Source of the DNA: Patescibacteria group bacterium
GTDB taxonomy: Bacteria; Patescibacteriota; Minisyncoccia; HO2-45-28
Length of the DNA stretch: 33,230 nucleotides
Assembly: GCA_038063435.1 (NCBI GenBank)
Contig: JBBTVC010000016.1
Span: forward strand, 1-33,230
Reading direction: 5' to 3'
Shown piece after piece: positions 2,690 to 19,929 of this stretch; position 1 is the first letter of the stretch, and every line of letters begins with the position of its first letter. The notes beneath the pieces were generated by a model. It worked only from the letters and a program-made list of their open reading frames with translations, was not told the DNA's origin and did not search any database. The translations under genes and the position numbers were made by a program.

Positions 2690-4795
<2,106 letters not shown>

Positions 4796-4884
4796 TCATG
4801 GACGAAGAAAAAAAAGAGCCCGATAATGATTTTGTCTCGGAGCTGACCGCCGAGGATTTTGAAATTTCGGGGGATTTGGACGAC

Positions 4885-4913
4885 TTGCCCCTGTAATTTG
4901 GAGGCCGTATAAT
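4885..4913 (+). promoter_or_regulatory. Putative promoter of the secreted S1 protease gene
   Basis: TTGCCC (4885-4890), 17 nt, TATAAT (4908-4913). It is followed by RBS AAGGAGA (about 4932-4938) and ATG 4945. Confidence 0.45.
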
Positions 4914-4944
4914 TAAATAAGTTTTTTGACAAAGGAGAAACCCG

Positions 4945-5793
4945 ATGAGAAGAATCGGACCGGTGTTTGCGATGATTTTTGCGATTTTTGTTTCTGCCGC
5001 TCAAGCGGCGCCGACCGAGTATTATATCCCAAAGCCCGACGGCAAATACGACAACCACGCATATCTCGTTAACCCCGAAAAATACAGCTTTAACTTAGTT
5101 AAAAATTCGGTGGTGCGTCTGGAAAATACTACCGAGTTTAAGGGTTCTGACGGCAGGCCTGTGTCCAACACCAGGATCGGAGGCGGCGTTATACTCGGGA
5201 AATATGTTTTAACTGTCGCGCATGTGAGCGTTCAAGACGCGCTAAAAATACCCATGCCGCCTTTCGGCTCTATTGCGATTCCGGCCAGGAAAATCAGCGA
5301 GAAAACTTTTGCCGTTCTTGATGGAGTGAAAGTTCTTTTAACCGCGGTCCACATTAAAAGAGAAGACGACATAGCTATTTTTAAACTCCCGGACGACATT
5401 AGTGTCGGCGCTTTTCCGTACGAAATTGGCGACAGCGACGATTTGGAGATTGGCAATATGGTGTATGTTGTGGGAAACCCTTTGAATATGGGCGTAAACG
5501 TCAGGCAAGGCATTGTCAGCGCGGTTGAAGCACCCAAAGAAACCGAAGGCGTTGACGGCAAAAGCAAAAACTTTTTCATGTTGTCATCCGGAGTATACGG
5601 CGGCGACAGCGGCACTCCGGTCATCGCGGTCCGCGACGGCAGATTTGAACTTGTCGGCATTTCGGAGGGTGTTTTTGGCAGCGCCGACCAGCTTGGCTTT
5701 GCCATACGCATCAACGTCGTTAAGCGTATTGTTGAAGATTGCCGAAAATGCTCCGAAGATTTAAAAGATATTTTCAGGAAAAAAGCCCGCTAG
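4945..5793 (+). CDS. Secreted trypsin-like (S1 family) serine protease
   Basis: Signal peptide MRRIGPVFAMIFAIFVSAAQA|AP. Catalytic-triad contexts are LTVAHV (His), DDIAIFKL (Asp) and GGDSGTPV (Ser). A strong SD precedes the start. Confidence 0.8.
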   Translation: MRRIGPVFAMIFAIFVSAAQAAPTEYYIPKPDGKYDNHAYLVNPEKYSFNLVKNSVVRLENTTEFKGSDGRPVSNTRIGGGVILGKYVLTVAHVSVQDALKIPMPPFGSIAIPARKISEKTFAVLDGVKVLLTAVHIKREDDIAIFKLPDDISVGAFPYEIGDSDDLEIGNMVYVVGNPLNMGVNVRQGIVSAVEAPKETEGVDGKSKNFFMLSSGVYGGDSGTPVIAVRDGRFELVGISEGVFGSADQLGFAIRINVVKRIVEDCRKCSEDLKDIFRKKAR

Positions 5794-5806
5794 ACGGGCT
5801 TTTTTG
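5784..5806 (+). terminator. Intrinsic terminator after the S1 protease gene
   Basis: Stem AGCCCG/CGGGCT has the stop codon in its loop. A T6 run follows and an A run precedes it. Confidence 0.7.
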
Positions 5807-5886
5807 TCGCTCTTCCTTATTTTTAAAAGATGCGCTAGGATTATCGCGAAGGGCACATTGATAGTTTGAAATCGGCGGAGGTCTGT

Positions 5887-7359
5887 ATGAAAAAGGCGGC
5901 CTTGGTCGCTCTGTCTTTAATTGTTTCAGCGACAATTTTACTTACCCACTACGAAGCGGCTATACGCGATCCGTCGGCAAAAGAGGAAGAACTGAGCTTT
6001 ATCAGAAAAAGAGTCGGCACCATAATAGTTCCGCAAGAGCATAGTTTTGAAATTTTGCCTAGGGACGCCAAAGAGGCGGGCGAAAAAAGAACCGAAACCA
6101 TGAAGCTCGCCAATTTCGGCCGAGCCTTTACGGCTCGTATGCGTGGAAACAAAATGCTCTTAACTTCGGGACACACGCTTTCTCCTCCTATCGGGCGCGA
6201 AATTTCCATGTTGGAAAGCGTCTTTGCCAAAAGGAATAAAATTGACGAGTCTAAATTTGAAGTCAGGTATAAATCCACGGAAGTTAAGAAAGAGAGTCTG
6301 GTTTTCCGGATAGGCGATAACATCTATAAGGATTTTGAAATAAAATTTTTGCTTTTTGACGAAATTGGCCAGGACTTCGCGATTCTCGCGTTCAAAGACG
6401 CTGGAAAAATTCCTAAAGAATATTTTAAACTTGGTTCTACCGCGGATTTGAATTACGGAGATACACTTTTTATGGCCGGCGGTAGCGGTTCTTCTCCAGC
6501 CAACATTTTTTTGGTTCCGGCAATCTTTGAAGAAAATCAGGAAGTTTTCATTCAGCCCGACGGCAGTATCGGGTATGGGCAGGCGGTTATGACGCTAAGC
6601 GGCGCCGCAGTCGCGGCCGGAGCTTCCGGCTCTCCCATATTGAAAAAAGACTTCGGCTGTTCAAAAATTTACTGCTATCGCGCGGTTGGAATCGTGCGCA
6701 GCATCATAGGCGACATTGACGACGCCAGGCTTCATTCGCACACGTTTCATGCCGCCAGGATAGAGTTGGTGAAAGAAGCCGCGGACAACATTGTTTTTCC
6801 GGTTAAGCCCAAAGAGGGCGAAAAAAAGGCAAACTGGCTTGAAGTTATTAGAACAAAGACACTCTCGTTTGATCGCATGAGCTGGGTTGTTTTTGGAACG
6901 ATCGCCGCTTTCGCGATTCTTCTCCTCCTGATTTTCAAACCGCGGAATACATACCTGTCGTATCTGGTTGCGTCGGTTTTAATCGTTTTGATTTCGCTTT
7001 CGGTTTATTTCGGCATTCGTTCGTCTCTCGGCTGGCCGAGCCGTTTTATCCCGGAAAACGATTTACTGTTGGTTGACGTCAAGTCCGAGCCGTCCAACAA
7101 AAGAGCGTATTTGTTGGTTAGAGAAAAACTGCCAAGCGGAGAATTCAGCAAATTGCGCCTGCTTGAGGTTATTTACGAGCCCGGATCCAGCAGCGCGAAG
7201 GAGCTGGACGGAAGAATTCAGCTGCTCAAAAAGGGCAAGGGAACCATTCTTCGTTTAAAGAGATTAACAAGGGGCGGGGCATTCAAAACCCCGGAACTTT
7301 CCGAATTTGAGTTTCACGACTTCCTTCACGAAAACCTTCCGCCTAAAAAAATAAAATAA
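5887..7359 (+). CDS. Membrane-tethered trypsin-like serine protease homolog with two extra TM helices and an unknown C-terminal domain
   Basis: I prefer ATG 5887 (GGAGG 6 nt upstream) over the track's TTG 5866. There is an N-terminal anchor, MKKAALVALSLIVSATILL. Triad-like contexts are TSGHT, QDFAILAF and GASGSPIL. TM helices WVVFGTIAAFAILLLLIF and YLVASVLIVLISLSVYFGI follow. The last ~110 aa match nothing I recognise. Confidence 0.7.
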   Translation: MKKAALVALSLIVSATILLTHYEAAIRDPSAKEEELSFIRKRVGTIIVPQEHSFEILPRDAKEAGEKRTETMKLANFGRAFTARMRGNKMLLTSGHTLSPPIGREISMLESVFAKRNKIDESKFEVRYKSTEVKKESLVFRIGDNIYKDFEIKFLLFDEIGQDFAILAFKDAGKIPKEYFKLGSTADLNYGDTLFMAGGSGSSPANIFLVPAIFEENQEVFIQPDGSIGYGQAVMTLSGAAVAAGASGSPILKKDFGCSKIYCYRAVGIVRSIIGDIDDARLHSHTFHAARIELVKEAADNIVFPVKPKEGEKKANWLEVIRTKTLSFDRMSWVVFGTIAAFAILLLLIFKPRNTYLSYLVASVLIVLISLSVYFGIRSSLGWPSRFIPENDLLLVDVKSEPSNKRAYLLVREKLPSGEFSKLRLLEVIYEPGSSSAKELDGRIQLLKKGKGTILRLKRLTRGGAFKTPELSEFEFHDFLHENLPPKKIK

Positions 7360-7367
7360 TTTATATT

Positions 7368-7396
7368 AAAACCCGAGCTCTTATGAGTCGGGTTTT
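7368..7396. terminator. Bidirectional hairpin terminator between convergent genes
   Basis: AAAACCCGA...TCGGGTTTT with inner CTC/GAG pairing. It overlaps the stop codon of the minus-strand gene. Confidence 0.6.
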
Positions 7397-8024
7397 ACAT
7401 TGCGCCTTTGGCCGCGGCGATTCTTTCAAAATCAAAACGAACGCTTTCTTTAATAAATTCCCCGTTTACGTCCATATCAAACTGCACAATCGTTTTTTCA
7501 GCGCCGCTTTTTTCCATGATTATTTTTTTGTCAAAAACTGTTTGCATGTCTATCGCGACGCCGTTTCTAAATCTTTGGATCATAATTTTTATCTCCACCG
7601 GAACTTCGCCCACGCCGCGAAAATAAAACAGATTAACTATATAGTGGCCGGCAATTTTATCTTTGTCCGCGACCGAAACAATAAACTCCTCGTTTCTGTC
7701 GGTTGTCGCGTCCCAACCGGTGTCGTCTCTCAAAAGAACGAACGTTGGGCTTTGCGGCCTAGAATAACCGACCGATCTGTCGTCCGGCCCCTGGGCCCAC
7801 ATATCAATATCCTGCGTCCACTTTTCAGGCCAAGTCGCGTGGATTGTGATTATGCTTTTTACCGCTCCTTTGGCCTCCTCCTCTTTTTTTATGCTGGCCA
7901 CGATAAGCAGCGCCACCAGAAGAACAACAATGGAAAGGTAGTTGTTGAGCACCACGTCAATGAAGGCGGTGGTGATGCTCGTGTTTCTTTTGTTATTTCC
8001 TCTGGAGCGGAATCTTAATTTCAT
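7395..8024 (-). CDS. ExbD/TolR-like single-pass membrane protein with a non-canonical beta-rich C-terminal domain
   Basis: The N-terminus MKLRFRSRGNNKRNTSITTAFIDVVLNNYLSIVVLLVALLIVA resembles the ExbD/TolR basic segment plus the IDV Asp-containing TM helix. Its start overlaps the upstream gene's stop as ATGA (8021-8024). A G-rich SD lies upstream. An alternative in-frame ATG at 8072 has no SD. Confidence 0.6.
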   Translation of the reverse strand: MKLRFRSRGNNKRNTSITTAFIDVVLNNYLSIVVLLVALLIVASIKKEEEAKGAVKSIITIHATWPEKWTQDIDMWAQGPDDRSVGYSRPQSPTFVLLRDDTGWDATTDRNEEFIVSVADKDKIAGHYIVNLFYFRGVGEVPVEIKIMIQRFRNGVAIDMQTVFDKKIIMEKSGAEKTIVQFDMDVNGEFIKESVRFDFERIAAAKGAM

Positions 8025-8770
8025 CCTCCGCCCCCTTCTTTTGGCGTTTCGCGCGCGTTGCCTCCGTTCCATTCAGGAAGAGAGTGCTTCCACATTACAA
8101 GCGACAGCCGTATTCTTAGCTGTACTGTTCCTCTGTCCACTATCAGGCAGAGCAGTTTCAGGAACAGCCATAGGGCTTGGCCGTATAGTGTCGTGATAAA
8201 GGCGGTGGCCATGCCCTCGCTCATGGGGCGCACCATTTTGGTGAAAATCTCGGCTCTGCCTATGTCCAGTCCCATAAATCCTGAAAGAGCAATGATGATT
8301 CCGGCCACCGTGCCCAAAAGACCGAGGGTCACGAGCGAATCGGCTATGAAGTGGGCGGTATCGGTCAAATCGTCCAGCATCATCACTATGTTTTCCATGT
8401 TTTTGTCATGCAGTTCGGTCGGGCTCAACTCTTTTCTTTTTTGCCAAAGATTTCTGATCGCTTTGATGTGATATGAGATAAGGCAGTTATTTTTTTCAAT
8501 TTGGTCGTGTCCATCGCCCTGCGACAGCGCTTCTTGGATTTTACACGTCTTATTTAATTCCCCGAAAACATATATCATTTTATGAGTAATCAGCGCAAGA
8601 CCGATAAAAAATACGGCGATAATCAGCCAGGTTATCTTTGTGTTGTCCAAAGACACGGTGTAGTATATGAGTCCTTCCCACCACATATACGCGCTAAAAA
8701 CAATTCCGATTGCCAGAAAAAAAAGCCAGGTCGCAAGAAAACAATAAGGACTTGCCAGTCTCTGATCCAT
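8021..8770 (-). CDS. MotA/TolQ/ExbB-family proton-channel protein
   Basis: The C-terminal TM pair carries SLVTLGLLGTVAGIIIAL and MATAFITTLYGQALW, the family hallmarks (LGLLGTVxG, TTxxG). Two N-terminal TM helices and a ~90-aa cytoplasmic loop complete the protein. I prefer ATG 8770 (GGAGG with a 5-nt spacer) over the track's TTG 8803. Confidence 0.75.
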   Translation of the reverse strand: MDQRLASPYCFLATWLFFLAIGIVFSAYMWWEGLIYYTVSLDNTKITWLIIAVFFIGLALITHKMIYVFGELNKTCKIQEALSQGDGHDQIEKNNCLISYHIKAIRNLWQKRKELSPTELHDKNMENIVMMLDDLTDTAHFIADSLVTLGLLGTVAGIIIALSGFMGLDIGRAEIFTKMVRPMSEGMATAFITTLYGQALWLFLKLLCLIVDRGTVQLRIRLSLVMWKHSLPEWNGGNARETPKEGGGG

Positions 8771-8856
8771 TTTTTCCTCCGATTTTTCAAAAATCTTGTT
8801 CAAACGGACTTTAACACCGCGTTTTATTCATGTAAATAGGCGCGTCATGGTCTGGT

Positions 8857-8884
8857 TTGACTTCGTCTTTTTAGATTCTATACT
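8857..8884 (+). promoter_or_regulatory. Putative promoter of the S41 protease gene
   Basis: TTGACT (8857-8862), 16 nt, TATACT (8879-8884). GGAGG precedes ATG 8929. Confidence 0.4.
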
Positions 8885-8928
8885 CAAAATTAGAGCAACT
8901 TTAAATCAAAACACCGCGGAGGCGTCAG

Positions 8929-10182
8929 ATGAAAATTCGTTCGGTTCCGCTCGGTCTGTTTTTGGCCGTTTCTTTGTTGTTGGCGCGTCCGGCTCCGGCC
9001 CAGGTGGCCGCGGTTGAAACGCTTTCACCGAGAATACTTGCTTTGGCCGAAATAATAAGAACGATTGAAGAAAACTCTTTTTACGAATTAAGCGAGAAAG
9101 AATTAAATGCCGTTCAGGAATGTATGGCCGGAAGGGCTTTCAGAAGTTTTGAAATGAAAAAAGGCGAAATGCTGAAGGAAGACCTGAAAATTACAAGCTG
9201 TTTTCCGCAGGATAAACGCGCGATGTATTTTCCGCCGGCAGTTGCCAAGAACTTAAATGAAGCGCGCGAGGGGCATTTTAGCGGAATAGGCATCTCCGTG
9301 GCTCCCGATGAAGAAATCGGCGGCATTGCGGTCAAAGAAATCCTGCCGGCTGGTCCTGTTGAAAAAGACGGACGGCTAAAGGTTGGCGACGTCATTACGG
9401 CCGTAGGCGAGTTTGTTGAAGGCCAAGAAATTAAAACCGCCCCGCTTAAGGGCCTTGATTTTGGCAAAATGATTGAGATGGTTAGAGGAGCGCCCGGAAC
9501 CAAAATCGCGCTTGAGGTGCGGAGGGGCGGCCAGAAACTGCCATTGATAATTATTGCCAGAGAAGACGTTAAGATTCAGTCTGTTAAGGCCTACGAAATA
9601 GAGCCCGGGGTGGGCTATTTGAAAATACATTCTTTTTTGAGCTTAAACGTGGCGGCCGATGTTTGGCTGGTCTTAGCCGGTTTTAAAGACAAAAACATTA
9701 ATAAGTTAATTGTTGATTTAAGGCGCAATTCCGGCGGGCTTATGAACGAGACAATGATGATCGCCTCATTTTTTACTCCGAGAATCGGCGATCTTATTTT
9801 GGAAGCGCGCTGGCGCGGCCAGAAGACCGGCCAAGGACAGAGATTTACTTCTCCTTTGACAGGACCTTTTTCTGAAATTAAAACCGTTGTTTTAATTGAC
9901 GGCTCATCTGCGTCCGCGTCCGAGATTTTAGCCGGCTCTTTGAAGATATGGGGCGCAAAAGTAGTCGGAGTTAAAAGCTACGGCAAGGGCAGTATTCAGA
10001 CCGTGATTCCGCTTTCTGATGGCGGTGAGTTTAGTTTAACCACCGGTCTTTATTATCTCGCTGACGGCAAGACTCCTGAAGACGGAGGAATTGAGCCGCA
10101 TTTCGTCATTGAAGACGACCCCAGAACTCCGGATGTTGATGAGGCCCTGGCGGTTGCGACCGGAATACTTATGGACCCTTAA
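8929..10182 (+). CDS. S41 family C-terminal processing (tail-specific) peptidase with PDZ domain
   Basis: Signal peptide ...LLLARPAPAQV. PDZ-like GIGISV...GGIAVKEILPAGPVEKDGRLKVGDVITAV. Catalytic contexts are IDGSSASASEILAG (Ser) and GKGSIQ (Lys). Confidence 0.85.
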   Translation: MKIRSVPLGLFLAVSLLLARPAPAQVAAVETLSPRILALAEIIRTIEENSFYELSEKELNAVQECMAGRAFRSFEMKKGEMLKEDLKITSCFPQDKRAMYFPPAVAKNLNEAREGHFSGIGISVAPDEEIGGIAVKEILPAGPVEKDGRLKVGDVITAVGEFVEGQEIKTAPLKGLDFGKMIEMVRGAPGTKIALEVRRGGQKLPLIIIAREDVKIQSVKAYEIEPGVGYLKIHSFLSLNVAADVWLVLAGFKDKNINKLIVDLRRNSGGLMNETMMIASFFTPRIGDLILEARWRGQKTGQGQRFTSPLTGPFSEIKTVVLIDGSSASASEILAGSLKIWGAKVVGVKSYGKGSIQTVIPLSDGGEFSLTTGLYYLADGKTPEDGGIEPHFVIEDDPRTPDVDEALAVATGILMDP

Positions 10183-10203
10183 TTTTCATACGCAAGCACG
10201 CAA

Positions 10204-10239
10204 ATGCGTCCCGCAACTGCCGGACGCATTTTTATTTTG
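10204..10239 (+). terminator. Intrinsic terminator after the S41 gene
   Basis: Stem ATGCGTCC (10204-10211) / GGACGCAT (10222-10229) followed by TTTTTATTTT. Confidence 0.65.
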
Positions 10240-10266
10240 TCCCAAAATCTGTATAATAACTTCATA

Positions 10267-12351
10267 ATGGCTAGAAAAAAGAAAGAACGCGCGTCCAAAA
10301 AAGAGGACGCGGGAGAAGTAGGCCGTTACGAAAGGGTAAGCCGGGAAACAAAACATTCCATTTGGGCTATTTTTTCCATGGCCTTGTCTCTTTTATTCGT
10401 GCTTGCGGCTTACGGCAAAGCCGGCTTTATTGGCGAGAGCATCTACGGATTTTTGGACCTTCTTTTCGGCGGAGCGTTTTTTTTGGTGCCGCTGACGCTT
10501 TTTTTAGCCGGACTCTCTTTTATTTTTTCGCTTAGGACCAGTCTTGTGGCCACAACAATCGGCGGAGGGTTTTTAATGCTTTTTTCAACGCTTGGGATAT
10601 TTGATGCTATTTTTGGCGAAAAATCCGCGGGCCTGATTGGGCTTGCCGTTTCTTACCCGCTTTTAAAACTTTTTGATTTCTGGGCAACTTTAGTCATATT
10701 GGTTTCCCTTTCTATAATATCCCTGCTTTTAATGCTTAATGTTTCAATAAAGCCGCGGCGCTGGTTTGCACGAAAAGAAAAAACCGATGATGAAGACTTA
10801 ATTACGGATAACGCCGAGAAAGTATCGGAGACGGCGGCAGAAACGGAACACCCGGCCTGGACCGGAATAAAAGAAGCGGCCGATGCCATCCGCCGGGAAT
10901 TAATGGCTAAATCCGATTCGGTCAGCCGAGCGCCCGTAACAGAGCGGGCCGAAGAGAACCAGGGTCTCGGGGTGGCCGAACCTTCGAATGACGAAGAGGG
11001 TTTTGAGGACGAGTCTTTTAAATTCGGCCAAAAAAATAAAAAGGCCGCTGTTTTCGAGTTCAAACCCCCGCCTTTAGACATTTTAGAAAACGACAAAGGC
11101 AAGCCGTCTTCCGGCGACATTAAGGCCAATTCCAACATCATTAAAAGAACTCTTCAGAATTTCAGCATTGCCGTTGAGATGGGCGAGATAAATGTCGGTC
11201 CGTCAATAACCCAATACACGCTGAGACCGGCCGAAGGCATAAAACTTTCGCGCATTATCGGTTTGCATAATGACTTATCTTTAGCGCTAGCTGCCCATCC
11301 GATAAGAATTGAAGCGCCCATTCCCGGTAAATCATTGGTTGGAGTTGAAATACCGAATAAGTCCATAGCCTTGGTCGGCATGGGCAGTATTTTATCGCAG
11401 GAAGAATATAAATCATCGGCTGCGCCCCTCTTTTTGGGTTTGGGGCGTGATGTCACGGGGCGGGCGATTTTTGCCGACCTTGGCAAAATGCCGCATCTTT
11501 TGGTCGCAGGCTCAACCGGATCGGGCAAATCAGTCGCGATTCACGCCATGATGATGTCTTTACTTTTTCGCAATCCTCCGGACCGGCTTCGCTTTCTGAT
11601 GATTGACCCGAAGCGGGTTGAGCTCACGGTTTATTCCGGAATACCACACATTTTAACACCGGTCATAACCGATGCTAAAAAAGCGATAATGGCTTTGAAG
11701 TGGGCGGTCAAAGAAATGGAGCGAAGATACGAACTTTTGGCCGCCGTCAAAGTGCGCGATATCAAGTCCTACCAGGAATCTAAAAATGCCGGGGAATTCC
11801 CCATGCCTTACATTCTTATAGTGATAGACGAGCTGGCCGACATGATGGCGGCTTACCCCCGGGAAATGGAAGCTTCAATCGTGCGTCTGGCCCAGATGTC
11901 GCGGGCTGTCGGCATCCATCTGGTTGTCTCTACACAGAGGCCGTCGGTTGAGGTTATTACCGGTTTAATTAAAGCCAACATAACCTCGCGCATCGCTTTC
12001 CAGGTGGCTTCTCAAGTTGATTCGCGGACTATTCTCGATATGGCCGGGGCCGAGAAGCTTTTGGGCAATGGCGACATGCTTTATTTATCAGGTGATGCTT
12101 CAAAGCCGCGAAGACTACAGGGCGCTTTTGTTTCTGAATCAGAGGTGAGAAGGGTTGCCCAGCATCTTGAATCCCAATATGCCCAGTCGGAATTCGACGG
12201 CTTGAATCTTGAGCCCGAAAACAGCGCTACGTCTATTTTTCAAACAGGCAAAGCGGAAGAAGTTGACGACGAGCTTTATAAACAAGCGGAGGAGGTGATA
12301 ATGCAGGCCGGCAAAGCATCAGCCTCGTATCTGAACGGAGGCTCCGGGTAG
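10267..12351 (+). CDS. ftsK: DNA translocase FtsK/SpoIIIE (N-terminal TM domain, linker, motor); the reading frame ends prematurely inside the gamma domain
   Basis: Walker A GSTGSGKS, Walker [10 protein letters not shown], and [16 protein letters not shown] 10267 lies 9 nt after TATAAT (10252-10257). The track's start at 10204 falls inside the upstream terminator hairpin. The frame stops at ...[11 protein letters not shown]. Confidence 0.85.
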
Positions 12352-12533
12352 GATATGCCCGCGCGGCGAGACTCCTGGATATTTTGGAGTCCCGCGGAGT
12401 TATCGGGCCGGCCGATGGCGCGAAGCCTCGCGAAGTGCTTATAAAAAAGAATCCAAACAACGCGGTTGGAGCCGTCGAAGGAGAAGAATCCGAAAACACC
12501 GGAGAAGGAAAAAACTTTTTTGATTCGTTTTAA
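12336..12533 (+). pseudogene. ftsK: FtsK gamma (winged-helix) domain encoded in the -1 frame relative to the ftsK body
   Basis: The frame starting at 12336 reads [38 protein letters not shown]...*, the canonical continuation of SASxLQRRLRIGYxRAARL. One missing base between CTG (12331-12333) and CGG (12336-12338) explains the break. Confidence 0.8.
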
Positions 12534-12544
12534 AAGAATTTAAT

Positions 12545-12889
12545 ATGAGACGCTTTGTCGTAATATGGATTTTCGGACTATTTTTGGCGTCTTTTTTTGT
12601 TTATTTTATTTTTATTTTCCAAAGTTTTTGGCGCGGGCCTCAAATTACGATTGATTTTCCCGAAGAAGGCGCAGGCCTCAGTAATTCCCACATTCTGGTG
12701 AGGGGCCGCGGACACGATATAACTAAATTGGAGCTTAATGGCCGGCTGGTTTATACTGATGAAAACGGCGATTTTGAAGAGGAATTGATTTTGGCTTCGG
12801 GTCTTAATATTATTGAGCTTAAGGCCGATGGCCGTTTTGGCCGCAAGATTTCCGAAAAAAGAATGGTCATGGTAAAATTAACGGAATAA
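12545..12889 (+). CDS. Hypothetical membrane-anchored protein with a small beta-sandwich/Ig-like ectodomain
   Basis: N-terminal TM helix VVIWIFGLFLASFFVYFIFIF, followed by a PQITIDFPEEG...ILVRGRG...LELNGRLVYTDENGDFEEELILASGLNIIELKA pattern typical of Ig-like domains. The family assignment is tentative. Confidence 0.55.
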   Translation: MRRFVVIWIFGLFLASFFVYFIFIFQSFWRGPQITIDFPEEGAGLSNSHILVRGRGHDITKLELNGRLVYTDENGDFEEELILASGLNIIELKADGRFGRKISEKRMVMVKLTE

Positions 12890-12899
12890 TTTTAAATAA

Positions 12900-13916
12900 A
12901 TGATAAAAAAACAAAAAGAGGAAAAAAATGACAAGATGGCTGCCGTTGAGGCGGCGATCAAGAGCATTCAGGCCAAATATGGCGAGGGCGCGATTATGAA
13001 ACTTGGCGAGGCCCGCCGGGTTGACGTTGATGTGGTGCCGACCGGGTCGCTATCTTTGGATATGGCTTTGGGTGTTGGCGGAGTGCCTCGGGGAAGAGTG
13101 ATTGAAATTTTCGGCCCTGAATCTTCGGGTAAAACAACACTTGCTTTAAATATCGTGGCGCAGGCCCAGAAAAAAGGAGGTCTTTGCGCTTTTGTGGATG
13201 CCGAGCATGCGCTGGATCCGGAGTACGCCAAAAAGTTGGGAGTTAAAATTGACGACCTTCTGATATCCCAGCCTGACACCGGCGAGCAGGCCCTTGAAAT
13301 AGTTGAATCTCTGGTGCGTTCGGCAAGCATTGATGTTGTGGTGATTGATTCGGTCGCTGCCCTTACTCCTAGGGCGGAAATTGAAGGAGATATGGGCCAA
13401 GCCCATATTGGTTTGCAAGCCAGGCTCATGTCCCAAGCCCTTCGCAAGCTCACGGCCCTTGTCGCAAAGACTAAAACCATCGTTATTTTTATAAATCAAA
13501 TAAGGATGCAAATCGGCATGATGTTCGGCAATCCCGAAACTACACCCGGCGGAAAAGCGCTTAAATTTTACGCGTCAGTCCGCATTGATATTCGCCGCAC
13601 GGCCCAGATAAAAAAGGGGGAAGAGTCAATCGGCAATCGTGTTAAAGCCAAAGTGGTTAAAAATAAAGTGGCCGCGCCTTTTAGGTTCGCCGAATTTGAC
13701 ATAATGTTTGGCGAAGGCATTTCTTACGAGGGCGATGTTTTGAATCTGGGAATTAAATATGAACTGGTTAAAAAACTGGGAAACACTTTTTCTTACGACG
13801 CCCACAAGCTCGGCGTAGGCTACGAAAACGCCAGAAACTTTTTGAAAGAAAATCCAAAAATCACTCAGGAGCTGGTTAAAAAAATAAAAGAAGCGGCCAA
13901 ATCCGCCGCTTCGTAA
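12900..13916 (+). CDS. recA: Recombinase RecA
   Basis: [16 protein letters not shown] (Walker A), VVIDSVAAL and [22 protein letters not shown]. Alternative start at 12936 ([12 protein letters not shown]). Confidence 0.95.
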
Positions 13917-13927
13917 TTTTGTTGACC

Positions 13928-14629
13928 TTAGCCCAGTCCAAGTATTAAAAAGCTCGTCCAGTGCGCGTTCATTATGAATCCGAATGCGACCGGAACCATT
14001 AAGACAAACAAAAGGCTATAAATTAAAACCGTTTTAGTCAGCTGCCAGAAAGAAAGGTGCGCGATGATTGTGCGGTCGCGGATTTCAACTGATTCCAGCG
14101 CGATTTTCATAACCTTGCCCTTAAAATCATCTGGAAGCCTGTAGACCGGAAAAATGTTTAGATATAAACCGACAGCCATTTCAACGGCTGCGCTAATAAG
14201 TTCCTCTTTCATTTTTGATTTCTCAAATCCGGCAACGCCCAACTCCAAAAATTCAAGATTTTGATGTCGGAAATGAAAACTGCCTCCGTGGCTGTTATAG
14301 ACGAGATTGCCGTTTGCTTTCGCGGTTATTTTTACTTCTTTCGTAAAACCGTAGAGTTTAACGTCAAAACTTAAGTTTATTAAGTTGTTATCAAGGTTGA
14401 AATCCAGCCGGTCAATTAAAACAACAGTTCTTAGTTTTTGCGCCCTGAACGGAATTTTTTCAGCGATTTTTTCTTTTATTCTTTGCTCGCTTATGGAAAT
14501 ATCTTTTATTTTACCGATGGTTAGAGCGATGCCCGAGAATAAAGCAATAAGCGCGGAAATTGAAATGGTCACCCACGTTTTTCGTGTAAACAATTTCCGT
14601 CCCCCCGTTTTCAAACAGCGCCAACCCAA
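13928..14629 (-). CDS. Hypothetical membrane protein
   Basis: 233-aa ORF with an N-terminal TM helix (ISISALIALFSGIALTI) and C-terminal hydrophobic helices. I cannot make a confident family call; it has a faint DUF1439-like feel only. Confidence 0.5.
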   Translation of the reverse strand: MGWRCLKTGGRKLFTRKTWVTISISALIALFSGIALTIGKIKDISISEQRIKEKIAEKIPFRAQKLRTVVLIDRLDFNLDNNLINLSFDVKLYGFTKEVKITAKANGNLVYNSHGGSFHFRHQNLEFLELGVAGFEKSKMKEELISAAVEMAVGLYLNIFPVYRLPDDFKGKVMKIALESVEIRDRTIIAHLSFWQLTKTVLIYSLLFVLMVPVAFGFIMNAHWTSFLILGLG

Positions 14630-14680
14630 TATAAAAATAGCACAGGTTCAGCGGATTTGTAAATGAGCGAGCGCCCGGTT

Positions 14681-14887
14681 TTAATGTGTCACAAACGGTA
14701 CTAAGGCCATTTGGCGGGCGCGTTTGATGGCTTTTGCGAGTTTACGCTGATGGGTGGAACAAACCGAAGTTTTGCGCTTGGCTAAAATTTTTGACTGCGG
14801 GCTTAAAAATTTTTTTAAGACCTCGGTGTCTTTATAGTCCACCGATTTCATGTTGGAAGTGCAAAAATAACACTGCTCTTTTCTCAT
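14681..14887 (-). CDS. rpsR: 30S ribosomal protein S18
   Basis: CYFCTSNMKSVDYKDTEVLKKFLSPQSKILAKRKTSVCSTHQRKLAKAIKRARQMALVPF is canonical S18. It sits in the rpsF-ssb-rpsR arrangement. Confidence 0.93.
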   Translation of the reverse strand: MRKEQCYFCTSNMKSVDYKDTEVLKKFLSPQSKILAKRKTSVCSTHQRKLAKAIKRARQMALVPFVTH

Positions 14888-14890
14888 ATT

Positions 14891-15331
14891 TTAAAAAGGA
14901 ATTTCGTCGGGGTTTATATTTTCCTCGCCGTAATCAATAGTGGGCACTTCCGGCTGGGCTTCTTCTTTCGGCGCTGTCTCCTGTTTATTGACCGAGGCTC
15001 CCGAGCTTCGCGGTCCTAACTGTATGCTTTCGGCTACAACCTCGGTTTTGTATTTTTTCTGCCCGTCTTGCCCTTGCCACGAACGATTCTGGATTCTTCC
15101 CTCAACCATTAAAAGAGAGCCCTTATTTAAATATTGTTTGGAAATTTCGGCCAGCCGTCCGAAAGCTACGATGTTATGAAATTGGGTGTCTTGCTGTTTT
15201 TGTCCGCTTTTGTCGTTGAAAAAACGGTTGGTCGCAACACCGAAAGAGGCCACGCTTTGCCCGGAAGGCAGCGCCCTTATTTCCGGATCGCGGGTCAGAT
15301 TGCCTATTAAAAAAATTTTATTTAAATTCAT
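14891..15331 (-). CDS. ssb: Single-stranded DNA-binding protein
   Basis: OB-fold N-terminus MNLNKIFLIGNLTRDPEIRALPSG...FHNIVAFGRLAE and an acidic tail ending DEIPF. Confidence 0.9.
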   Translation of the reverse strand: MNLNKIFLIGNLTRDPEIRALPSGQSVASFGVATNRFFNDKSGQKQQDTQFHNIVAFGRLAEISKQYLNKGSLLMVEGRIQNRSWQGQDGQKKYKTEVVAESIQLGPRSSGASVNKQETAPKEEAQPEVPTIDYGEENINPDEIPF

Positions 15332-15354
15332 TTTTGTTATTTTTAGTTAATAAT

Positions 15355-15771
15355 TTATTTTCCCAGCATTTCCTCAAGTTTTTTGTCTATTTCGGCGATA
15401 TCGGTTTTTTCCGCGGCCGGAGTCTGAATAATTCTCCTTTTGCGCGCGGGTCTCTCGGACATCTCGGCTCTATTAACCTTAAAAATCGCGAACCGCACTA
15501 TTTTCTTTGAATCATCTTTTAAAGATTGTTCAATCGCGGCCAGGGCCTCGGGCCTAGCCATAAATTTTATCCAGCCCCACCAGCCCTCTTTTTCCCCGCC
15601 CACCGGATAACTTAAGACTTTACGCGTCGGCTGGTTTTGCGTGGCAATTATTCCGTGCTCTTTTTCAATTGCCCCGCCGACCAAAGCCGCGCATTCAAGA
15701 GCCGCTTGGTCGTCTGCGGCTCTGGCTAAGTACGATATTTCATATAGCTTAGGGTCGCTTTCTTTATCCAT
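15355..15771 (-). CDS. rpsF: 30S ribosomal protein S6
   Basis: It lies upstream of ssb-rpsR. The sequence KLYEISYLA...WGWIKF...IVRFAIFKV is S6-like. I chose the start at MDKES (15771); the track ORF extends to 15819. Confidence 0.75.
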   Translation of the reverse strand: MDKESDPKLYEISYLARAADDQAALECAALVGGAIEKEHGIIATQNQPTRKVLSYPVGGEKEGWWGWIKFMARPEALAAIEQSLKDDSKKIVRFAIFKVNRAEMSERPARKRRIIQTPAAEKTDIAEIDKKLEEMLGK

Positions 15772-15820
15772 TGAATCAAAAGTAGCATGTATGTTTATAA
15801 ATTTCAACCCCAGCAACACT

Positions 15821-16834
15821 TTATTTGCCGATTAAAAATTCTATTACATCGCCGTCTAAAACTTCGTAATCTTTGCCTTCGGTCCGGATGAGCCCTTTAT
15901 TTGAGGCGTCGGCAAAGGATTTAGTTGAAACAAGCTTTTGCCAGTCGATTACTTTGGCCCTGATAAAATTTTTCTCGAAGTCCGAATGTATGGCGCCGGC
16001 GGCCTCTTTGGCGCGCGAACCGCGTTTTATTGTCCAGGCCCGCGCTTCTTTTTCGCCGACGGTTAAAAATGATATTAAATTCAGGGCTTCGTAGCAGACT
16101 TTTATTAAGTCATCGAGACCTTCTCCGGTTTTGGCTGAAAAATAAATGATTGGTTTTTCGCGGTGTGTTTTTTTGAAGTTTTTTACATCCGCGAGCTTTG
16201 AAGCATCGGTGTTGAATGCGTAAATTTTTGGTTTAAGCGAAAGTAAATTGAGTTCTTTTAGAACCACGGATATTTTTTCATTCCCGGCGTCTTTTTCCGA
16301 AACACGGAACTCTTTACCCCCAGCCGTTTTTTCTTTAAGAGAAAAAAGAAACACAGCCTCCTCTTTTTTAGACGGGTCTTTTTTAATTGAATCCAGTTTT
16401 TTTTCAAGCGACTCAAGGTCTTTTAACCGTAGTTCGGTTTCTATTATTTCAGCGTCTTCCCCCGGATTTTTTGAGTGTTCACGAAGTATTTCGGGGTCTT
16501 CAAAATCACGCACAACCTCAAGAATTATTGAGGCGTTTTTGATGTGATTTAAAAATTGATTGCCGAGCCCCTCGCCTTCGGATGCGCCCTTAACCAAACC
16601 CGCGATATCAACGAAAGTTATGGCTGTCGGGACTATTGGAGGGGGGGTCTCGGGATTAAACCAGCGGGCGAGTTTGTCCAGCCGTTCATCCGGAACGCTG
16701 ACCACGCCGATATTCGGCTCAATTGTGGCAAATGGGTAATTGGCCACGAGCGCCTGCTCGCGTTTTAAAAGGGCGTTGAATAATGATGATTTGCCGACAT
16801 TAGGCAAGCCGACTATGCCGATTTTTAGAGACAT
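15821..16834 (-). CDS. ychF: Ribosome-binding ATPase YchF (Obg-like GTPase family)
   Basis: MSLKIGIVGLPNVGKSSLFNALL, ATIEPNIGVV, DIAGLVKGASEGEGLGNQFL and a C-terminal TGS-like GKDYEVLDGDVIEF. The ATG is at 16834; the track uses TTG 16840. Confidence 0.9.
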   Translation of the reverse strand: MSLKIGIVGLPNVGKSSLFNALLKREQALVANYPFATIEPNIGVVSVPDERLDKLARWFNPETPPPIVPTAITFVDIAGLVKGASEGEGLGNQFLNHIKNASIILEVVRDFEDPEILREHSKNPGEDAEIIETELRLKDLESLEKKLDSIKKDPSKKEEAVFLFSLKEKTAGGKEFRVSEKDAGNEKISVVLKELNLLSLKPKIYAFNTDASKLADVKNFKKTHREKPIIYFSAKTGEGLDDLIKVCYEALNLISFLTVGEKEARAWTIKRGSRAKEAAGAIHSDFEKNFIRAKVIDWQKLVSTKSFADASNKGLIRTEGKDYEVLDGDVIEFLIGK

Positions 16835-16856
16835 AAACAAATGTTAAGATTAAAGC

Positions 16857-18194
16857 GTGAACAAAATCAATCCGTCTATATTTAAAGAATACGATATTCG
16901 GGGAAAATATCCCGACGAAATTGACGAGGATGCTGTTTATAAAATTGGTTCCGCTTTTTGCGAATATCTAAATCAAAAAAAACATTTCGGTAAAATCGTC
17001 GTAGGGCGGGACGCGCGGCTTTCTTCGCCGGAGTTGTCCGAGGTTTTCACGCAAGGAGTTTTAGACCAGGGCCGGGACGTTATTGATGTCGGACTTTGTT
17101 CAACGCCTCTTTTTTATTTCGCGCTGAATTCGTCCGGCTCGGCCGGCGGCGGAATGATCACCGCTTCGCATAACCCTAAAGAGTATAACGGATTGAAATT
17201 GATCCGCGAGGGCGGGCGGCCGGTTTATAAAAAAGACGGCTTGCCGGAAGTCGAGACGCTGGCCAACTTAGAAATTGCGCGAAAATTCGGAGTAGGAAAG
17301 GCAACAAAAGAGGATTTTAGCCGAGGTTATTTAGATTTTTTAAAAAAGCACACTGACACAAAACGGCCGTTAAAAATTGTTGCCGACGCCTCAAACGGAT
17401 CGGCCGGGCCAATTTTAGAAAAATTTTTAGACGAAACGAGTGTTTCTTCCGAAAAATTATTTTTTGAGCCCGACGGAAGTTTTCCGAATCATTCACCGAA
17501 CCCATTTTTGCCGGAGTCAAGAAAACTTCTTGAAGAAAAAGTTAAGACATCCGGCGCCGACTTTGGATTTATAGTTGACGCAGACGGCGACAGAATATTT
17601 TTTATAGACGAGAAAGGAAACTATGTTCCAGGCGATATAATGTTTGCGTTTTTGCTGGACAATCTCGCGCGAGAAGGGGACTTGATTCTTATTACAACGC
17701 GCGAGTCAAAAATTTTATTTGAAGTTGCGCAAAGAAGGGGAGCCGATGTAGTAAGAACTCGTGTTGGGCACGCAAATATAAAAACAGCCATGCGCGCCAA
17801 AAATGCCCGTTTCGGAGGAGAATTGTCCGGACATTTTTATTTCCGAGATTTTTATTATTCTGATTCGGCTCTTTTGATGCTGGCGCATGTTTTAACTCTG
17901 GTTTCGGTTTCAAACAAGCCGTTTTCTGAATTATTAAAGCCGTATCAAAAATATTTCCATTCCGGAGAATTAAATTTTGAGACCAGAAATCCGCAGGAGG
18001 CAATAGAAAAGTTAAAAAAAGAATATTCAAGCGGCCGCCAGTCATTTCTTGACGGTCTGTCTGTTGATTTTGACTCGTGGTGGTTCAATATCCGCGCTTC
18101 TAAAACAGAACCTCTCGTGCGCCTCGTCGTTGAGGCCGATTCCCAAAAACCAATGGAAGAAAAAATAAAAGAGTTGACAGAAAGGATTAAATAA
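16857..18194 (+). CDS. Phosphomannomutase/phosphoglucomutase (alpha-D-phosphohexomutase family)
   Basis: FKEYDIRG, active-site TASHNPKEYNGLK, Mg site DADGDR and GELSGH. GTG start. Confidence 0.85.
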   Translation: MNKINPSIFKEYDIRGKYPDEIDEDAVYKIGSAFCEYLNQKKHFGKIVVGRDARLSSPELSEVFTQGVLDQGRDVIDVGLCSTPLFYFALNSSGSAGGGMITASHNPKEYNGLKLIREGGRPVYKKDGLPEVETLANLEIARKFGVGKATKEDFSRGYLDFLKKHTDTKRPLKIVADASNGSAGPILEKFLDETSVSSEKLFFEPDGSFPNHSPNPFLPESRKLLEEKVKTSGADFGFIVDADGDRIFFIDEKGNYVPGDIMFAFLLDNLAREGDLILITTRESKILFEVAQRRGADVVRTRVGHANIKTAMRAKNARFGGELSGHFYFRDFYYSDSALLMLAHVLTLVSVSNKPFSELLKPYQKYFHSGELNFETRNPQEAIEKLKKEYSSGRQSFLDGLSVDFDSWWFNIRASKTEPLVRLVVEADSQKPMEEKIKELTERIK

Positions 18195-18239
18195 GCTAGA
18201 ATTTTTCTAGAATCCTTGGACTAGGGTAGGGGTGAAATT

Positions 18240-18455
18240 GTGTGGCATGTAGGTGGTTTTCCAAACAAGAACGCGCCTGTTTATATCCTTGTCGAGGAGA
18301 GTGCTTGTAGAGATAATGTGCCATTCTTGGCTAAGGCGATATTAGTAAAAACGGATCCGACATGGTGCTGGAAGTTGCTTGAATTTGATCCAGAAGAGGA
18401 AGAGGAAATTCTACAGCAACATTATTCGGTGGTTGCGTGGAGATATGTAAACTAA
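18240..18455 (+). CDS. Hypothetical Trp/Cys-rich 71-aa protein, first orphan gene of the pmm-trpS islet
   Basis: GTG start with GGGGTG 5 nt upstream. The ORF is followed 12 nt later by a strong hairpin terminator. I recognise no homology. Confidence 0.35.
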   Translation: MWHVGGFPNKNAPVYILVEESACRDNVPFLAKAILVKTDPTWCWKLLEFDPEEEEEILQQHYSVVAWRYVN

Positions 18456-18467
18456 AAATAAATTATT

Positions 18468-18499
18468 CCGCCAACGCATAATGCCGAGGCGGTTTTTTT
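18468..18499. terminator. Hairpin terminator T1 (bidirectional, A/T runs on both sides)
   Basis: CCGCC (18468-18472) ... GGCGG (18488-18492) with inner GC pairs, then T7. It is homologous to the hairpin at 19462-19491. Confidence 0.7.
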
Positions 18500-18556
18500 A
18501 TTTTTTAATTTCTAAACCAAATTTTTAATCACGGCAACCCAGCATCATATATGATC

Positions 18557-18596
18557 CAGTAATCTAATAGTAACGATCGTTACTATTAGATTACTG
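18557..18596. repeat. 40-bp perfect palindrome centred on CGATCG
   Basis: cagtaatctaatagtaacga|tcgttactattagattactg equals its own reverse complement (checked base by base). It is intergenic. Confidence 0.9.
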
Positions 18597-18640
18597 CGGC
18601 GCTAGATAGACGTTGCGTACAATTTATAGAATATAAAAAA

Positions 18641-18678
18641 ATTAAAAATCCAAGAGGCCGATTTTGGTTTATTTGACA
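18641..18678. repeat. trpS 3'-end relic, copy 1 (the most degraded)
   Basis: attaaaaatccaagaggccgattttggtttatttgaca. The reverse complement reads (stop)-T-K-I-G-L-L-D-F-stop, compared with the trpS C-terminus K-S-K-I-G-L-L-Q-F-stop. Confidence 0.8.
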
Positions 18679-18701
18679 AAACATGTCTCCGGGTGTATAA
18701 T
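18673..18701 (+). promoter_or_regulatory. Consensus sigma70 promoter P1
   Basis: TTGACA (18673-18678), exactly 17 nt, TATAAT (18696-18701). Both hexamers are perfect consensus. Confidence 0.65.
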
Positions 18702-18779
18702 ATAAAAATAGTTCCCGCTTGCCCGTGGTTTCAGCATGGTGCTGGAATGAGGGGCGAGCAAAAACAAAGGAGGCCAGTC

Positions 18780-19397
18780 GTGGCCAAAAGCAACGCGGCG
18801 GTACAGTTCGCGGGTCACTTCCAGGCGGTCGTCGGAGAACTAGCCGGCCGTCTGGAAAAGAAGGGTGGGAGTATCGTTGAGGTTGTCTCCAGACTCGCGC
18901 AGCCAAAAAACGAGCAAGTTCTTGACCAGATTGTGGAGACGCTTGTCGGGCTCATCAACATCTTTCGAGTGAAAATCGGCGGAAGAAAAAACATCGCCAA
19001 AGTTGTCAAAGCGAGCGCCTGCGCCTGCGATAACTCGATCGTTGAGCGATGCGTATTGCAGACAGGGTGCGAGCGCTTGGTCACGATTGAGACTTTTACT
19101 GTTGAGCACTTTGATAACCCCGAACCAAGCGATACCGAGATTGAGGCCGAGCATATCAAAAGAGGCCTCAAGCGCCCGGATGTGGATCATGTAATCCACT
19201 TCGTAGAGCAATACAAGCATTTGCCGGTGGAAGGGCGTCCGATTATCTTCTATCTGCAGAATCCAGTTCCTGATGCCGGCAACCGCGGCGTTCTGTTTTT
19301 ATGGCGCAGCGGTGCCATACGTAATCTCGGCTGGCTCTGGATCGATCCGGGCCCTCGGTTGACTCGCCCATGCAGTTTTGCCGGTGTCCGCGAGTAG
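18780..19397 (+). CDS. Hypothetical 205-aa protein in cassette 1, visibly more G+C-rich than its neighbours
   Basis: GTG 18780 is preceded by AAGGAGG (18767-18773) with a 6-nt spacer. Promoter P1 lies upstream and hairpin T2 downstream. The track ORF start (18693) lies inside the -10 box. An alternative in-frame ATG is at 18747. I recognise no family motif. Confidence 0.6.
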   Translation: MAKSNAAVQFAGHFQAVVGELAGRLEKKGGSIVEVVSRLAQPKNEQVLDQIVETLVGLINIFRVKIGGRKNIAKVVKASACACDNSIVERCVLQTGCERLVTIETFTVEHFDNPEPSDTEIEAEHIKRGLKRPDVDHVIHFVEQYKHLPVEGRPIIFYLQNPVPDAGNRGVLFLWRSGAIRNLGWLWIDPGPRLTRPCSFAGVRE

Positions 19398-19461
19398 CGC
19401 TTGGATTCTATTTAACATTTTGCGATTAAAGAGTAATCAAAAAATAGACGTCAAAATTATT

Positions 19462-19491
19462 CCACCAGGGCTAAATGCCTAGGTGGTTTTT
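19462..19491. terminator. Hairpin terminator T2, homolog of T1
   Basis: CCACC (19462-19466) ... GGTGG (19482-19486), then TTTTTGTTT. Relative to T1, the G->A and C->T changes are compensatory within the stem. Confidence 0.65.
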
Positions 19492-19524
19492 GTTTGATTT
19501 TATAATTTTAAATTTACCAGACCC

Positions 19525-19536
19525 CTACGATCGTAG
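19525..19536. repeat. 12-bp palindrome CTACGATCGTAG, the short counterpart of the 40-bp palindrome
   Basis: It has the same ACGATCGT core and the same relative position (between the hairpin and the trpS relic) as 18557-18596. Confidence 0.5.
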
Positions 19537-19576
19537 AAATGTGGTTAATTTGGTTTTCAAGGCTTTTGTGGTTTTT

Positions 19577-19612
19577 GTTAAAAATCCAAAAGGCCGATTT
19601 TGGATTTTGACA
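19577..19612. repeat. trpS 3'-end relic, copy 2
   Basis: gttaaaaatccaaaaggccgattttggattttgaca. Positions 19587-19608 are identical over 22 nt to 19940-19961. The reverse complement reads S-K-S-K-I-G-L-L-D-F-stop. It contains the inverted repeat AAAATCCAAAA-ggccga-TTTTGGATTTT. Confidence 0.85.
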
Positions 19613-19635
19613 GGCCCCGTGCTTAAGAGTATTCT
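19607..19635 (+). promoter_or_regulatory. Putative promoter P2; its spacing implies a leaderless transcript
   Basis: TTGACA (19607-19612), 17 nt, TATTCT (19630-19635). The A of ATG 19642 is 7 nt after the -10 hexamer. Confidence 0.5.
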
Positions 19636-19641
19636 GTGTGC

Positions 19642-19911: not shown

Positions 19912-19929
19912 AAAAGGAAAAACAAAAGA

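Follow-up and report, generated by a model that had tools for sequence, protein, structure and literature searches.

We report here that a contig from a Patescibacteria group bacterium (GenBank assembly GCA_038063435.1, contig JBBTVC010000016.1, positions 1 to 33,230 of the forward strand; this whole stretch of 33,230 nucleotides is called the window below) carries a member of what is best read as a widespread, previously undescribed three-gene module and a new branch of the superfamily of 5:2 ion-driven motors. We call the module A-B-C. Gene A encodes a channel subunit of the MotA/ExbB family, gene B a small protein with an aspartate in its single transmembrane (TM) helix and an all-beta outer domain, and gene C a TM hairpin with an extracytoplasmic tail. 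The window has no separate C gene; its C module forms the end of a 497-residue protein whose N-terminal domain is a probable serine protease. We consider it reasonably likely that A-B-C is an ion-driven motor of the stator type which, in the window, is wired to an extracytoplasmic protease via C. In the literature on DUF2135, on ExbB in Patescibacteria, on stator-like proteins together with proteases and on novel Exb/Tol families, we found no account of the A-B-C module.

Genes A and B are both on the minus strand of the window, at positions 8021-8770 (249 residues, beginning MDQRLASPY) and 7395-8024 (209 residues, beginning MKLRFRS), respectively. The stop codon of A and the start codon of B share the tetranucleotide ATGA at 8021-8024 (minus strand), as read off the sequence, which indicates translational coupling of the two genes. 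The same overlap is kept in the relative L001, whose A and B proteins are 48% and 58% identical to those of the window. The two genes and their overlap had been described in the original prediction, made from the sequence alone, as a stator-like pair. The A/B core of that proposal is real, but the conserved unit turned out to be a triad.

This conclusion comes from the gene neighbourhood. Open reading frames (ORFs) were called and A, B and C profiles were built over 105 distinct loci (numbered with the prefix L), and the ratios given here use the loci with enough sequence. Of 94 testable loci, 93 had A immediately upstream of B, and in 87 of 89 a C-type gene followed B, 82 times in the same direction and five times convergently. 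The survey for conserved partners had been set beforehand as a possible refutation of the original prediction, and the partner it found is C, an outcome that speaks for the prediction. In three alphaproteobacterial loci the order was A, B and then a gene of about 170 residues with no Pfam match. The C protein has two TM helices, forming a hairpin, and a tail of about 100 residues ending in LPPK; stand-alone copies are about 160-180 residues long. Wherever C was not co-directional, a convergent C-like gene abutted B (L013, L035, L093, L094 and L096). L035 is from Gammaproteobacteria and L013 from Nealsonbacteria; among metagenomic sequences, L093 and L094 are closest to the window's B. All-against-all clustering of the ORFs flanking the 105 loci gave no other gene family present near B in more than 15 loci, and therefore the conserved unit is A-B-C. 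The window's A and B match the family profiles with E-values of 7e-53 and 5e-54, and its A-B-C arrangement is of the convergent kind.

It is scarcely credible, in the light of these counts, that the likeness to a motor is superficial, with A acting alone, B and the protease tail being unrelated membrane proteins, and the gene order arising by chance. B and C do lack an annotated family, and the Pfam match of A spans only 73 residues. However, A-B and B-C adjacency at this frequency in several phyla is not a chance result, and both the TM aspartate of B and the ATGA coupling are conserved. The loci are not near-identical copies of one mobile element either, since their proteins share 21-36% identity and their flanking genes differ.

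The A subunit is a bona fide protein of the MotA/ExbB family by profile comparison. The window's A scored 31.3 bits with the Pfam model MotA_ExbB (PF01618), against a gathering threshold of 22.9 bits, and its homologues reached 45.7 bits. The hallmarks pointed out earlier, LGLLGTVAG and TTLYGQ, are present and fall on the columns that vary least in the family (LGLLGT154VAG and ITT194LYG); they align with GMIGTLIG and ALITTLYG of MotA. Among 24 diverse A proteins, G150, G153, T154, G157 and G197 were invariant, and A190, T194 and the aspartate of the periplasmic loop, D42, were conserved in at least 90%. Small and polar residues (Gly, Thr) lining the ion path in the last two TM helices, a mark of the MotA/TolQ/ExbB family, are conserved here. 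By prediction, A has 2+2 TM helices and, on the cytoplasmic side, a short insert of about 55-80 residues. The profile of the 24 proteins matched the pentameric chains in PDB in the order MotA (4e-8), ZorA (4e-6 and 1.6e-5), TolQ (2.4e-5) and ExbB (3e-4). Models of MotA/MotP, TolQ and ExbB gave only weak matches to A, confined to the TM core and far under their cut-offs. Matching MotA, ZorA, TolQ and ExbB in this way, the A family therefore represents a separate branch of the superfamily, outside every named subfamily.

The closest named models after Pfam were those of ZorA from PADLOC and NCBIfam (E-values of 5e-7 to 1e-5). This raised the question whether the module is an anti-phage motor, Zorya-like or of another kind, whose A/B channel would sense a perturbation of the envelope and trigger a protease effector. 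Such an effector would suit the general logic of defence systems, and Zorya ZorA-ZorB is itself a stator recruited to a task other than motility. However, the ZorA models reached only 17-27 bits on A, against family cut-offs of 100-750 bits, and covered nothing but the shared TM core; A has 249 residues and no long ZorA tail, compared with 400-730 residues in ZorA. Neither B nor its neighbours matched ZorB, ZorC, ZorD or ZorE, and the peptidoglycan-binding domain of ZorB is absent. The context is that of housekeeping genes: the locus lies among genes for ribosomal proteins, EF-G, FtsK and RecA, its synteny is kept in L001, where A and B share only 48% and 58% identity with those of the window, and the proteobacterial modules are located in ordinary metabolic neighbourhoods, not in defence islands. 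A role in defence is therefore very improbable in our opinion.

The B subunit consists of a basic cytoplasmic N-terminus (MKLRFRSRGNNKRN), a single TM helix (residues 17-45) bearing D23 in the motif AFIDVVL, and an extracytoplasmic part of about residues 55-200. In an alignment of 100 sequences, W65, D72, D74, D100, G103 and E113 were invariant, and D23, W76, P80, L97, R99, D101, N111, G126, N131, E176, T178 and F182 were conserved in at least 90% of the homologues. W65, D72, D74, R99, D100, D101, G103, N111 and E113 make up a conserved acidic cluster which is probably a site for binding Ca2+, another metal or a ligand. The sandwich of the family is marked by the motifs DxDLW, LLRDDxG and NxE. 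An AlphaFold2 model computed from the 100-sequence alignment had a predicted local distance difference test (pLDDT) score of 89 and showed a helix (residues 16-51) followed by nine beta strands. An earlier model from three sequences reached a pLDDT of 61 only, and the Foldseek matches of that earlier model are meaningless.

B had been called ExbD-like, and this holds for its architecture only, that is, for the basic N-terminus, the N-in single TM helix with its conserved aspartate and the position of the gene directly after A. The ExbD/TolR model PF02472 did not match the window's B even at E <= 10, nor was it among the families matched by the 100 homologues. No ExbD/TolR chain was retrieved in PDB by the B profile or by Foldseek with the model of pLDDT 89. 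No match to B was obtained with the OmpA model (PF00691), while MotB_plug (PF13677) matched one of the 100 homologues, with an E-value of 0.009. The window's B had no match in Pfam, NCBIfam, PADLOC or the PDB sequences. In PDB, Foldseek with the model of pLDDT 89 found nothing below an E-value of 0.01 and no ExbD, TolR, MotB or OmpA; it returned only generic sandwiches (radial spoke protein, DUF4425, MmpS5 and Ig domains). The outer domain of B is thus, according to a confident model, an all-beta sandwich that is like neither ExbD/TolR nor OmpA, in line with what had been noticed from the sequence.

The proposed likeness of this domain to DUF2135-type sandwiches is a fair lead, with weak matches. 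The model PF09906 matched 11 of the 100 B homologues (best E-value of 1.3e-4); it is 48 positions long and covers the GEYIVNVHLY strand. On the consensus of the B family it gave 14.4 bits over just 29 residues, against a gathering threshold of 22 bits, and it did not match the window's own B. The PPC model (PF04151) matched one of the 100 homologues and likewise not the window's B. The best match of the B profile in PDB was the beta-jelly-roll domain of the subtilisin Tk-SP (3afg), with a sub-threshold E-value of 0.014-0.017, and it runs through the motifs DxDLW...P.G..V.YS and G.Y.v.V..Y. B shares with the PPC, DUF2135 and Tk-SP domains the pattern W..(s)D.DLW/Y...P.G..V.YS ... G.Y.v.V..Y, and its acidic cluster resembles that of the Ca2+-binding Tk-SP jelly roll. 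In contrast to B, those domains occur on secreted proteases or vWA proteins and not on stator B subunits; all the matches are sub-threshold, and the window's own B gave none of them. We therefore regard the B outer domain as possibly PPC/jelly-roll-like, the likeness being weak and below threshold.

A more conventional explanation would be a divergent or degenerate Ton/Tol-type system, energising an outer-membrane process through a TonB- or TolA-like partner encoded elsewhere. The resemblance of the module to ExbB-ExbD-TonB and TolQ-TolR-TolA is considerable: the A subunit belongs to MotA_ExbB and its profile finds TolQ and ExbB; B is small, with an ExbD/TolR-style basic N-terminus and a single TM helix carrying an aspartate; the genes overlap and are coupled; and a conserved third membrane protein could take the output of the motor. 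In addition, the family is carried mostly by diderm Proteobacteria. However, A has 2+2 TM helices, as in MotA, and not the three of ExbB and TolQ, and its matches to MotA and ZorA are no weaker than those to TolQ and ExbB. The outer domain of B is all-beta, whereas that of ExbD and TolR is an alpha/beta fold, and neither B nor any of the 100 homologues matched an ExbD/TolR model. The partner kept across the loci is C, whose TM hairpin and tail of about 100 residues, with LPPK at its end, bear no relation to TonB or TolA. No gene for TonB, TolA, Pal or a TonB-dependent transporter was present in the window or recurrent around the 105 loci, so that linked outer-membrane partners are missing, and the family is also found in genomes of the type of the Candidate Phyla Radiation (CPR), in L013 and the window, which are likely to lack an outer membrane. 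On balance, a Ton/Tol-type system appears improbable. The lack of TonB, Tol-Pal, flagellar and gliding partners in the window had been noted from the outset; our annotation of the 33,230 nucleotides agreed with it and contained no type IX secretion or Zorya effector genes either.

The flagellar stators MotA-MotB and PomA-PomB are similar to A-B in the four TM helices, the GxxGT and TTLxG motifs and the TM aspartate of B, and MotA was the best match of the A profile in PDB. They differ in that the insert of A is only about 55-80 residues long, with no recognisable torque-generating interface, and that B has neither the MotB plug nor an OmpA-like peptidoglycan-binding domain. In GldL-GldM and PorL-PorM, a 5:2 motor whose B-type subunit has periplasmic Ig-like beta-sandwich domains drives a non-flagellar machine (PMC9389320). 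Here, however, A belongs to PF01618, which GldL does not, B has one compact sandwich and not a long multi-domain shaft, and genes of the type IX secretion system are absent; B matched GldM and PorM neither by sequence nor by Foldseek. An orphan Tol/Exb-like motor with an inner-membrane-tethered vWA transducer and a TolR-like B subunit has been described in Proteobacteria and the Planctomycetes-Verrucomicrobia-Chlamydiae group (PMC12204202). Like A-B-C, it is an orphan motor with a non-TonB partner that was noticed only recently, and such modules are still being discovered; its partner is a vWA protein, whereas ours is the C hairpin together with a novel, sandwich-bearing B. Many 'generic ion transporters' whose function is unknown are also noted in recent survey work (PMC12505986).

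The C profile found nothing significant among the PDB sequences. In stand-alone C proteins the N-terminus is uncharged and the loop between the two helices carries positive charge (PRR/KPR), which suggests an N-out/C-out topology. We also considered the tail of C as a displaced ExbD-like alpha/beta domain, but this had no support in the sequence. In some lineages C is duplicated, and tandem C-type genes follow B in L017 (7587-8555), L086 (2030-3045), L032 and L037. A small Sel1-repeat gene is divergent from A and located just upstream of it in L007 (6582-6962) and L009 (6590-6976), and is not kept across the 105 loci. This gene and an ApbA gene (L007 and L011) were tried as partners of the module and rejected, as they reflect lineage synteny only.

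In the window, the C module corresponds to the last 164 residues of the 497-residue protein (positions 6865-7359, plus strand), comprising the TM hairpin and an extracytoplasmic tail of about 110 residues that ends in ENLPPKKIK. The gene ends exactly where convergent C genes sit in other loci. The module is 37% identical to the stand-alone C of L093, which has 178 residues (BLASTP E-value of 2e-27). A profile of the tails of the window, L001, L093 and L096 was run against 8082 ORFs and retrieved the C proteins of L013 (1e-15), L035 (3e-13), L017 (6.5e-6), L107 (2.6e-4) and L116 (2e-3), and an independent profile of proteobacterial C proteins matched L035 (1.9e-8) and L116 (2e-10) and, after iteration, L107 (6e-25) and L013 (5.7e-19). 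The first six sub-threshold matches of the proteobacterial profile include the neighbours of B in the window, L093, L001 (with its duplicate contig L002) and L096. With hhalign, the full module gave a P-value of 3e-6, and its soluble part on its own gave 1.9e-5. In an alignment of 30 sequences, the proline after the second TM helix, the arginine of the PRAY motif and the terminal lysine were conserved, also in the window (columns of R98 and K161). Direct BLASTP of the window's C tail with alphaproteobacterial C was not significant. Homology of the window's C module to the C family is thus established by transitivity of these sequence matches, with a weak direct link. The fusion of a secreted domain to the N-terminus of C fits the N-out topology suggested for C.

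The remainder of the 497-residue protein (ORF 5866-7359, with a likely start at the ATG at 5887) comprises a signal/anchor segment and a divergent domain of the trypsin fold (5887-6864, plus strand; residues about 8-333), which is probably a serine protease. The motifs of its putative catalytic triad, TSGH, DFAIL and GASGSP, are invariant between the window and L001. In BLASTP the protein matched its adjacent HtrA-like paralogue with an E-value of 0.002, DFAIL aligning with DIAIF and GASGSP with GDSGTP. This paralogue (4945-5793, plus strand) resembles HtrA/DegP; it is a predicted secreted protease of the trypsin type and has no PDZ domain (Trypsin_2 5e-14; NCBIfam HtrA-type models about 1e-15). 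An S41 (Ctp-type) protease with a PDZ domain is divergent from A (8929-10182, plus strand; Pfam Peptidase_S41 1.8e-34), as had been predicted, and is syntenic in L001. The association with a protease that was pointed out from gene order is therefore not incidental in the case of the 497-residue protein, as it carries a C module at its C-terminus. As a separate observation, envelope proteases cluster around the motor genes in the window (4945-10182) and in L001 (8675-15013), which has two Trypsin_2 paralogues where the window has one.

Several results weigh against a motor wired to a protease through C. The fusion of protease and C was found only in the window and in L001, and it may be a lineage-specific anchor without energetic meaning. 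The protease domain scored 21.3 bits with Trypsin_2 (E-value of 4.9e-4; 3.3e-4 for the orthologue in L001), under the gathering threshold of 27.6 bits, and neither phmmer nor a two-sequence profile matched it to PDB. The window-type C tails matched the proteobacterial C profile directly with an E-value of only 0.02 in the 8082 ORFs. No similarity of C to TonB or TolA could be detected, and the TM histidine motif of these two proteins is absent from it. The 5:2 stoichiometry and a contact between C and A would be carried over to this module by analogy, none of the RNA-seq runs searched for the locus contains it, and the synteny between the window and L001 takes in housekeeping genes too, so that it has little weight alone.

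Among the alternatives we weighed, the serious one starts from these observations. It accepts A-B-C as a real module and holds that the fusion is a mere anchor borrowed from C, the true job of the motor being, for example, remodelling of the envelope in cell-wall synthesis or division, with the B sandwich binding peptidoglycan or another glycan. All other C proteins are stand-alone, the module is kept in organisms with very different envelopes, and the window's locus adjoins ftsK. Domains of the PPC/CBM beta-sandwich type often bind polymers, which we counted in its favour. However, the C tail is well conserved in the fusion (37% identity, with the R98 and K161 columns kept), which argues that the job of C is still done there, beyond anchoring, and three further or paralogous envelope proteases are present at the locus in both relatives. 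We thus think this explanation unlikely, and prefer a motor that is wired to the protease via C.

The size of the B family became visible only by an exhaustive HMMER scan. With B or A as the sole query, a word-indexed search of proteins returned just two to three close relatives (two for B). The HMMER scan of 1.84 billion representatives gave 1041 relatives of B at E <= 1e-3 and 271 at E <= 1e-10; these representatives, taken at 50% identity, are nearly all about 200 residues long and matched over most of their length. None of the 1041 has a Pfam or NCBIfam model or name. A profile search of a larger collection returned at least 4001 clusters of B (90% identity), all 'hypothetical' and without a Pfam domain. 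In a collection of species-representative genomes, at least 577 stretches carry a gene related to B; of these, the best 80 were kept for analysis, and the closest match to the window's B among these 80 was a metagenome-assembled genome (MAG) of Ca. Nealsonbacteria. The family occurs in Alpha-, Beta- and Gammaproteobacteria (Mesorhizobium, Asaia, Meinhardsimonia, Thiobacillus denitrificans DSM 12475) and also in Verrucomicrobia, Planctomycetes (Phycisphaerae), Nitrospirae (Nitrospiraceae), Bacteroidota and CPR-labelled MAGs. It is further carried by Azospirillum chromids, in records that have no annotation at the locus. Three loci labelled Saccharibacteria/Patescibacteria (L048, L054 and L064) have A-B-C proteins that score about 1e-70 on the proteobacterial profiles, like those of true Proteobacteria, and these contigs may be mis-binned.

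With regard to the expression of the A-B genes in the window, a Shine-Dalgarno sequence GGAGG (8776-8780, minus strand), found in the sequence, stands 5 nt 5' of the ATG of A; because of it, we favour the ATG at 8770 over the TTG at 8803 as the start of A. A promoter-like site TTTACA-17-TAAAGT with a TG element (8808-8836, minus strand) was picked up by a consensus scan only, in which the number of such sites did not exceed the expectation from shuffled sequence; it is located in the divergent intergenic region common to A and the S41 gene. Between the convergent stop codons of the 497-residue gene (7357-7359) and B (7395-7397), a hairpin with an A-run on one side and a T-run on the other (7367-7397) had a fold energy of -17.2 kcal/mol (z = -4.4), and none of 200 shuffled sequences was equally stable. 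It is likely to be a bidirectional terminator, as the original prediction had proposed for the two convergent genes.

The rest of the window encodes housekeeping functions: tRNA-Pro, an M50 peptidase, S12, S7, EF-G, FtsK, RecA, SSB, S6, YchF, an enzyme of the phosphoglucomutase/phosphomannomutase family, TrpRS/TyrRS, EF-Tu and the S10/spc cluster through SecY and adenylate kinase. In the latter, only 9 nt separate S5 from L15, which precedes SecY (30095-31021), and there is no gene for L30. A missing L30 is a trait reported for CPR bacteria. Together with the best match in Nealsonbacteria it fits a CPR organism, and we find a CPR origin of the window DNA, which is present in groundwater metagenome runs, plausible.

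Some further features of the locus deserve mention. The FtsK ORF (10204-12351) ends without the gamma domain, and an ORF in another frame (12384-12533) resembles the winged-helix end of FtsK gamma, suggesting a frameshift in ftsK at about 12330-12384, either real or an assembly error; the orthologue in L001 has an intact FtsK_gamma. Between ftsK and recA there is a small membrane-anchored protein with a beta-sandwich of the Glucodextran_B type (12545-12889; 6009-6353 in L001). The str operon, canonical in other respects, has an extra ORF without a Pfam match between S7 and EF-G (2029-2676, 215 residues; in L001 19452-20294, 280 residues). In most bacteria, tufA directly follows fusA. Here EF-G and EF-Tu are about 16 kb apart (4795-21072), and the gap holds the cluster of proteases and motor genes together with the genes for FtsK, RecA, SSB, S6, YchF, the phosphoglucomutase/phosphomannomutase-family enzyme and the tRNA synthetase, which is of class I (Trp/Tyr).

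By analogy to the solved structures of MotAB, ExbBD, TolQR and ZorAB, the B TM helices would form a dimer inside a ring of five A subunits. The motor would be driven by ions, probably protons: D23 of B would face the conserved threonines of A and would gain and lose a proton during ion passage, and this passage could drive a relative rotation or a conformational cycle. The B sandwich and C would do the work outside the membrane. C would dock on the ring of A subunits, in the way that TonB binds to ExbB and TolA to TolQ, and would take up the mechanical output together with the B sandwich. In the lineage of the window, the activity of the motor or the state of the membrane potential may position, activate or pull on the extracytoplasmic protease, for which no outer membrane would be needed. 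We infer ion flow, the topology of the subunits, protease activity and the coupling of energy to proteolysis.

In a bolder version, which we find doubtful at present, A-B-C would be a phylogenetically broad fourth or fifth class of 5:2 motors, unrecognised so far, working wholly at the cytoplasmic membrane and cell wall without need of an outer membrane and with its output through C. In this CPR-like lineage it would make the serine protease depend on the proton-motive force or be driven mechanically by it, and the two would amount to a protease or unfoldase outside the cell that is powered by this force. If such a protease existed, it would do work where ATP is unavailable. To our knowledge, 5:2 stator-type motors are the only bacterial route for delivering energy beyond the cytoplasmic membrane. 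The partners known so far (the flagellum, TonB, TolA, GldM and Zorya) have each opened a field.

Two components of the A-B-C module have no Pfam or NCBIfam model and we found no literature on them, and yet the module is present in hundreds of species, some of which are culturable and genetically tractable (Azospirillum brasilense, Mesorhizobium, Thiobacillus denitrificans), as well as in a CPR bacterium that is likely to have no outer membrane. The fusion of the protease with C acts as a 'Rosetta stone', in that it suggests proteolysis or protein handling outside the membrane as one output of the module, and provides a first testable idea of what this orphan motor may act on.

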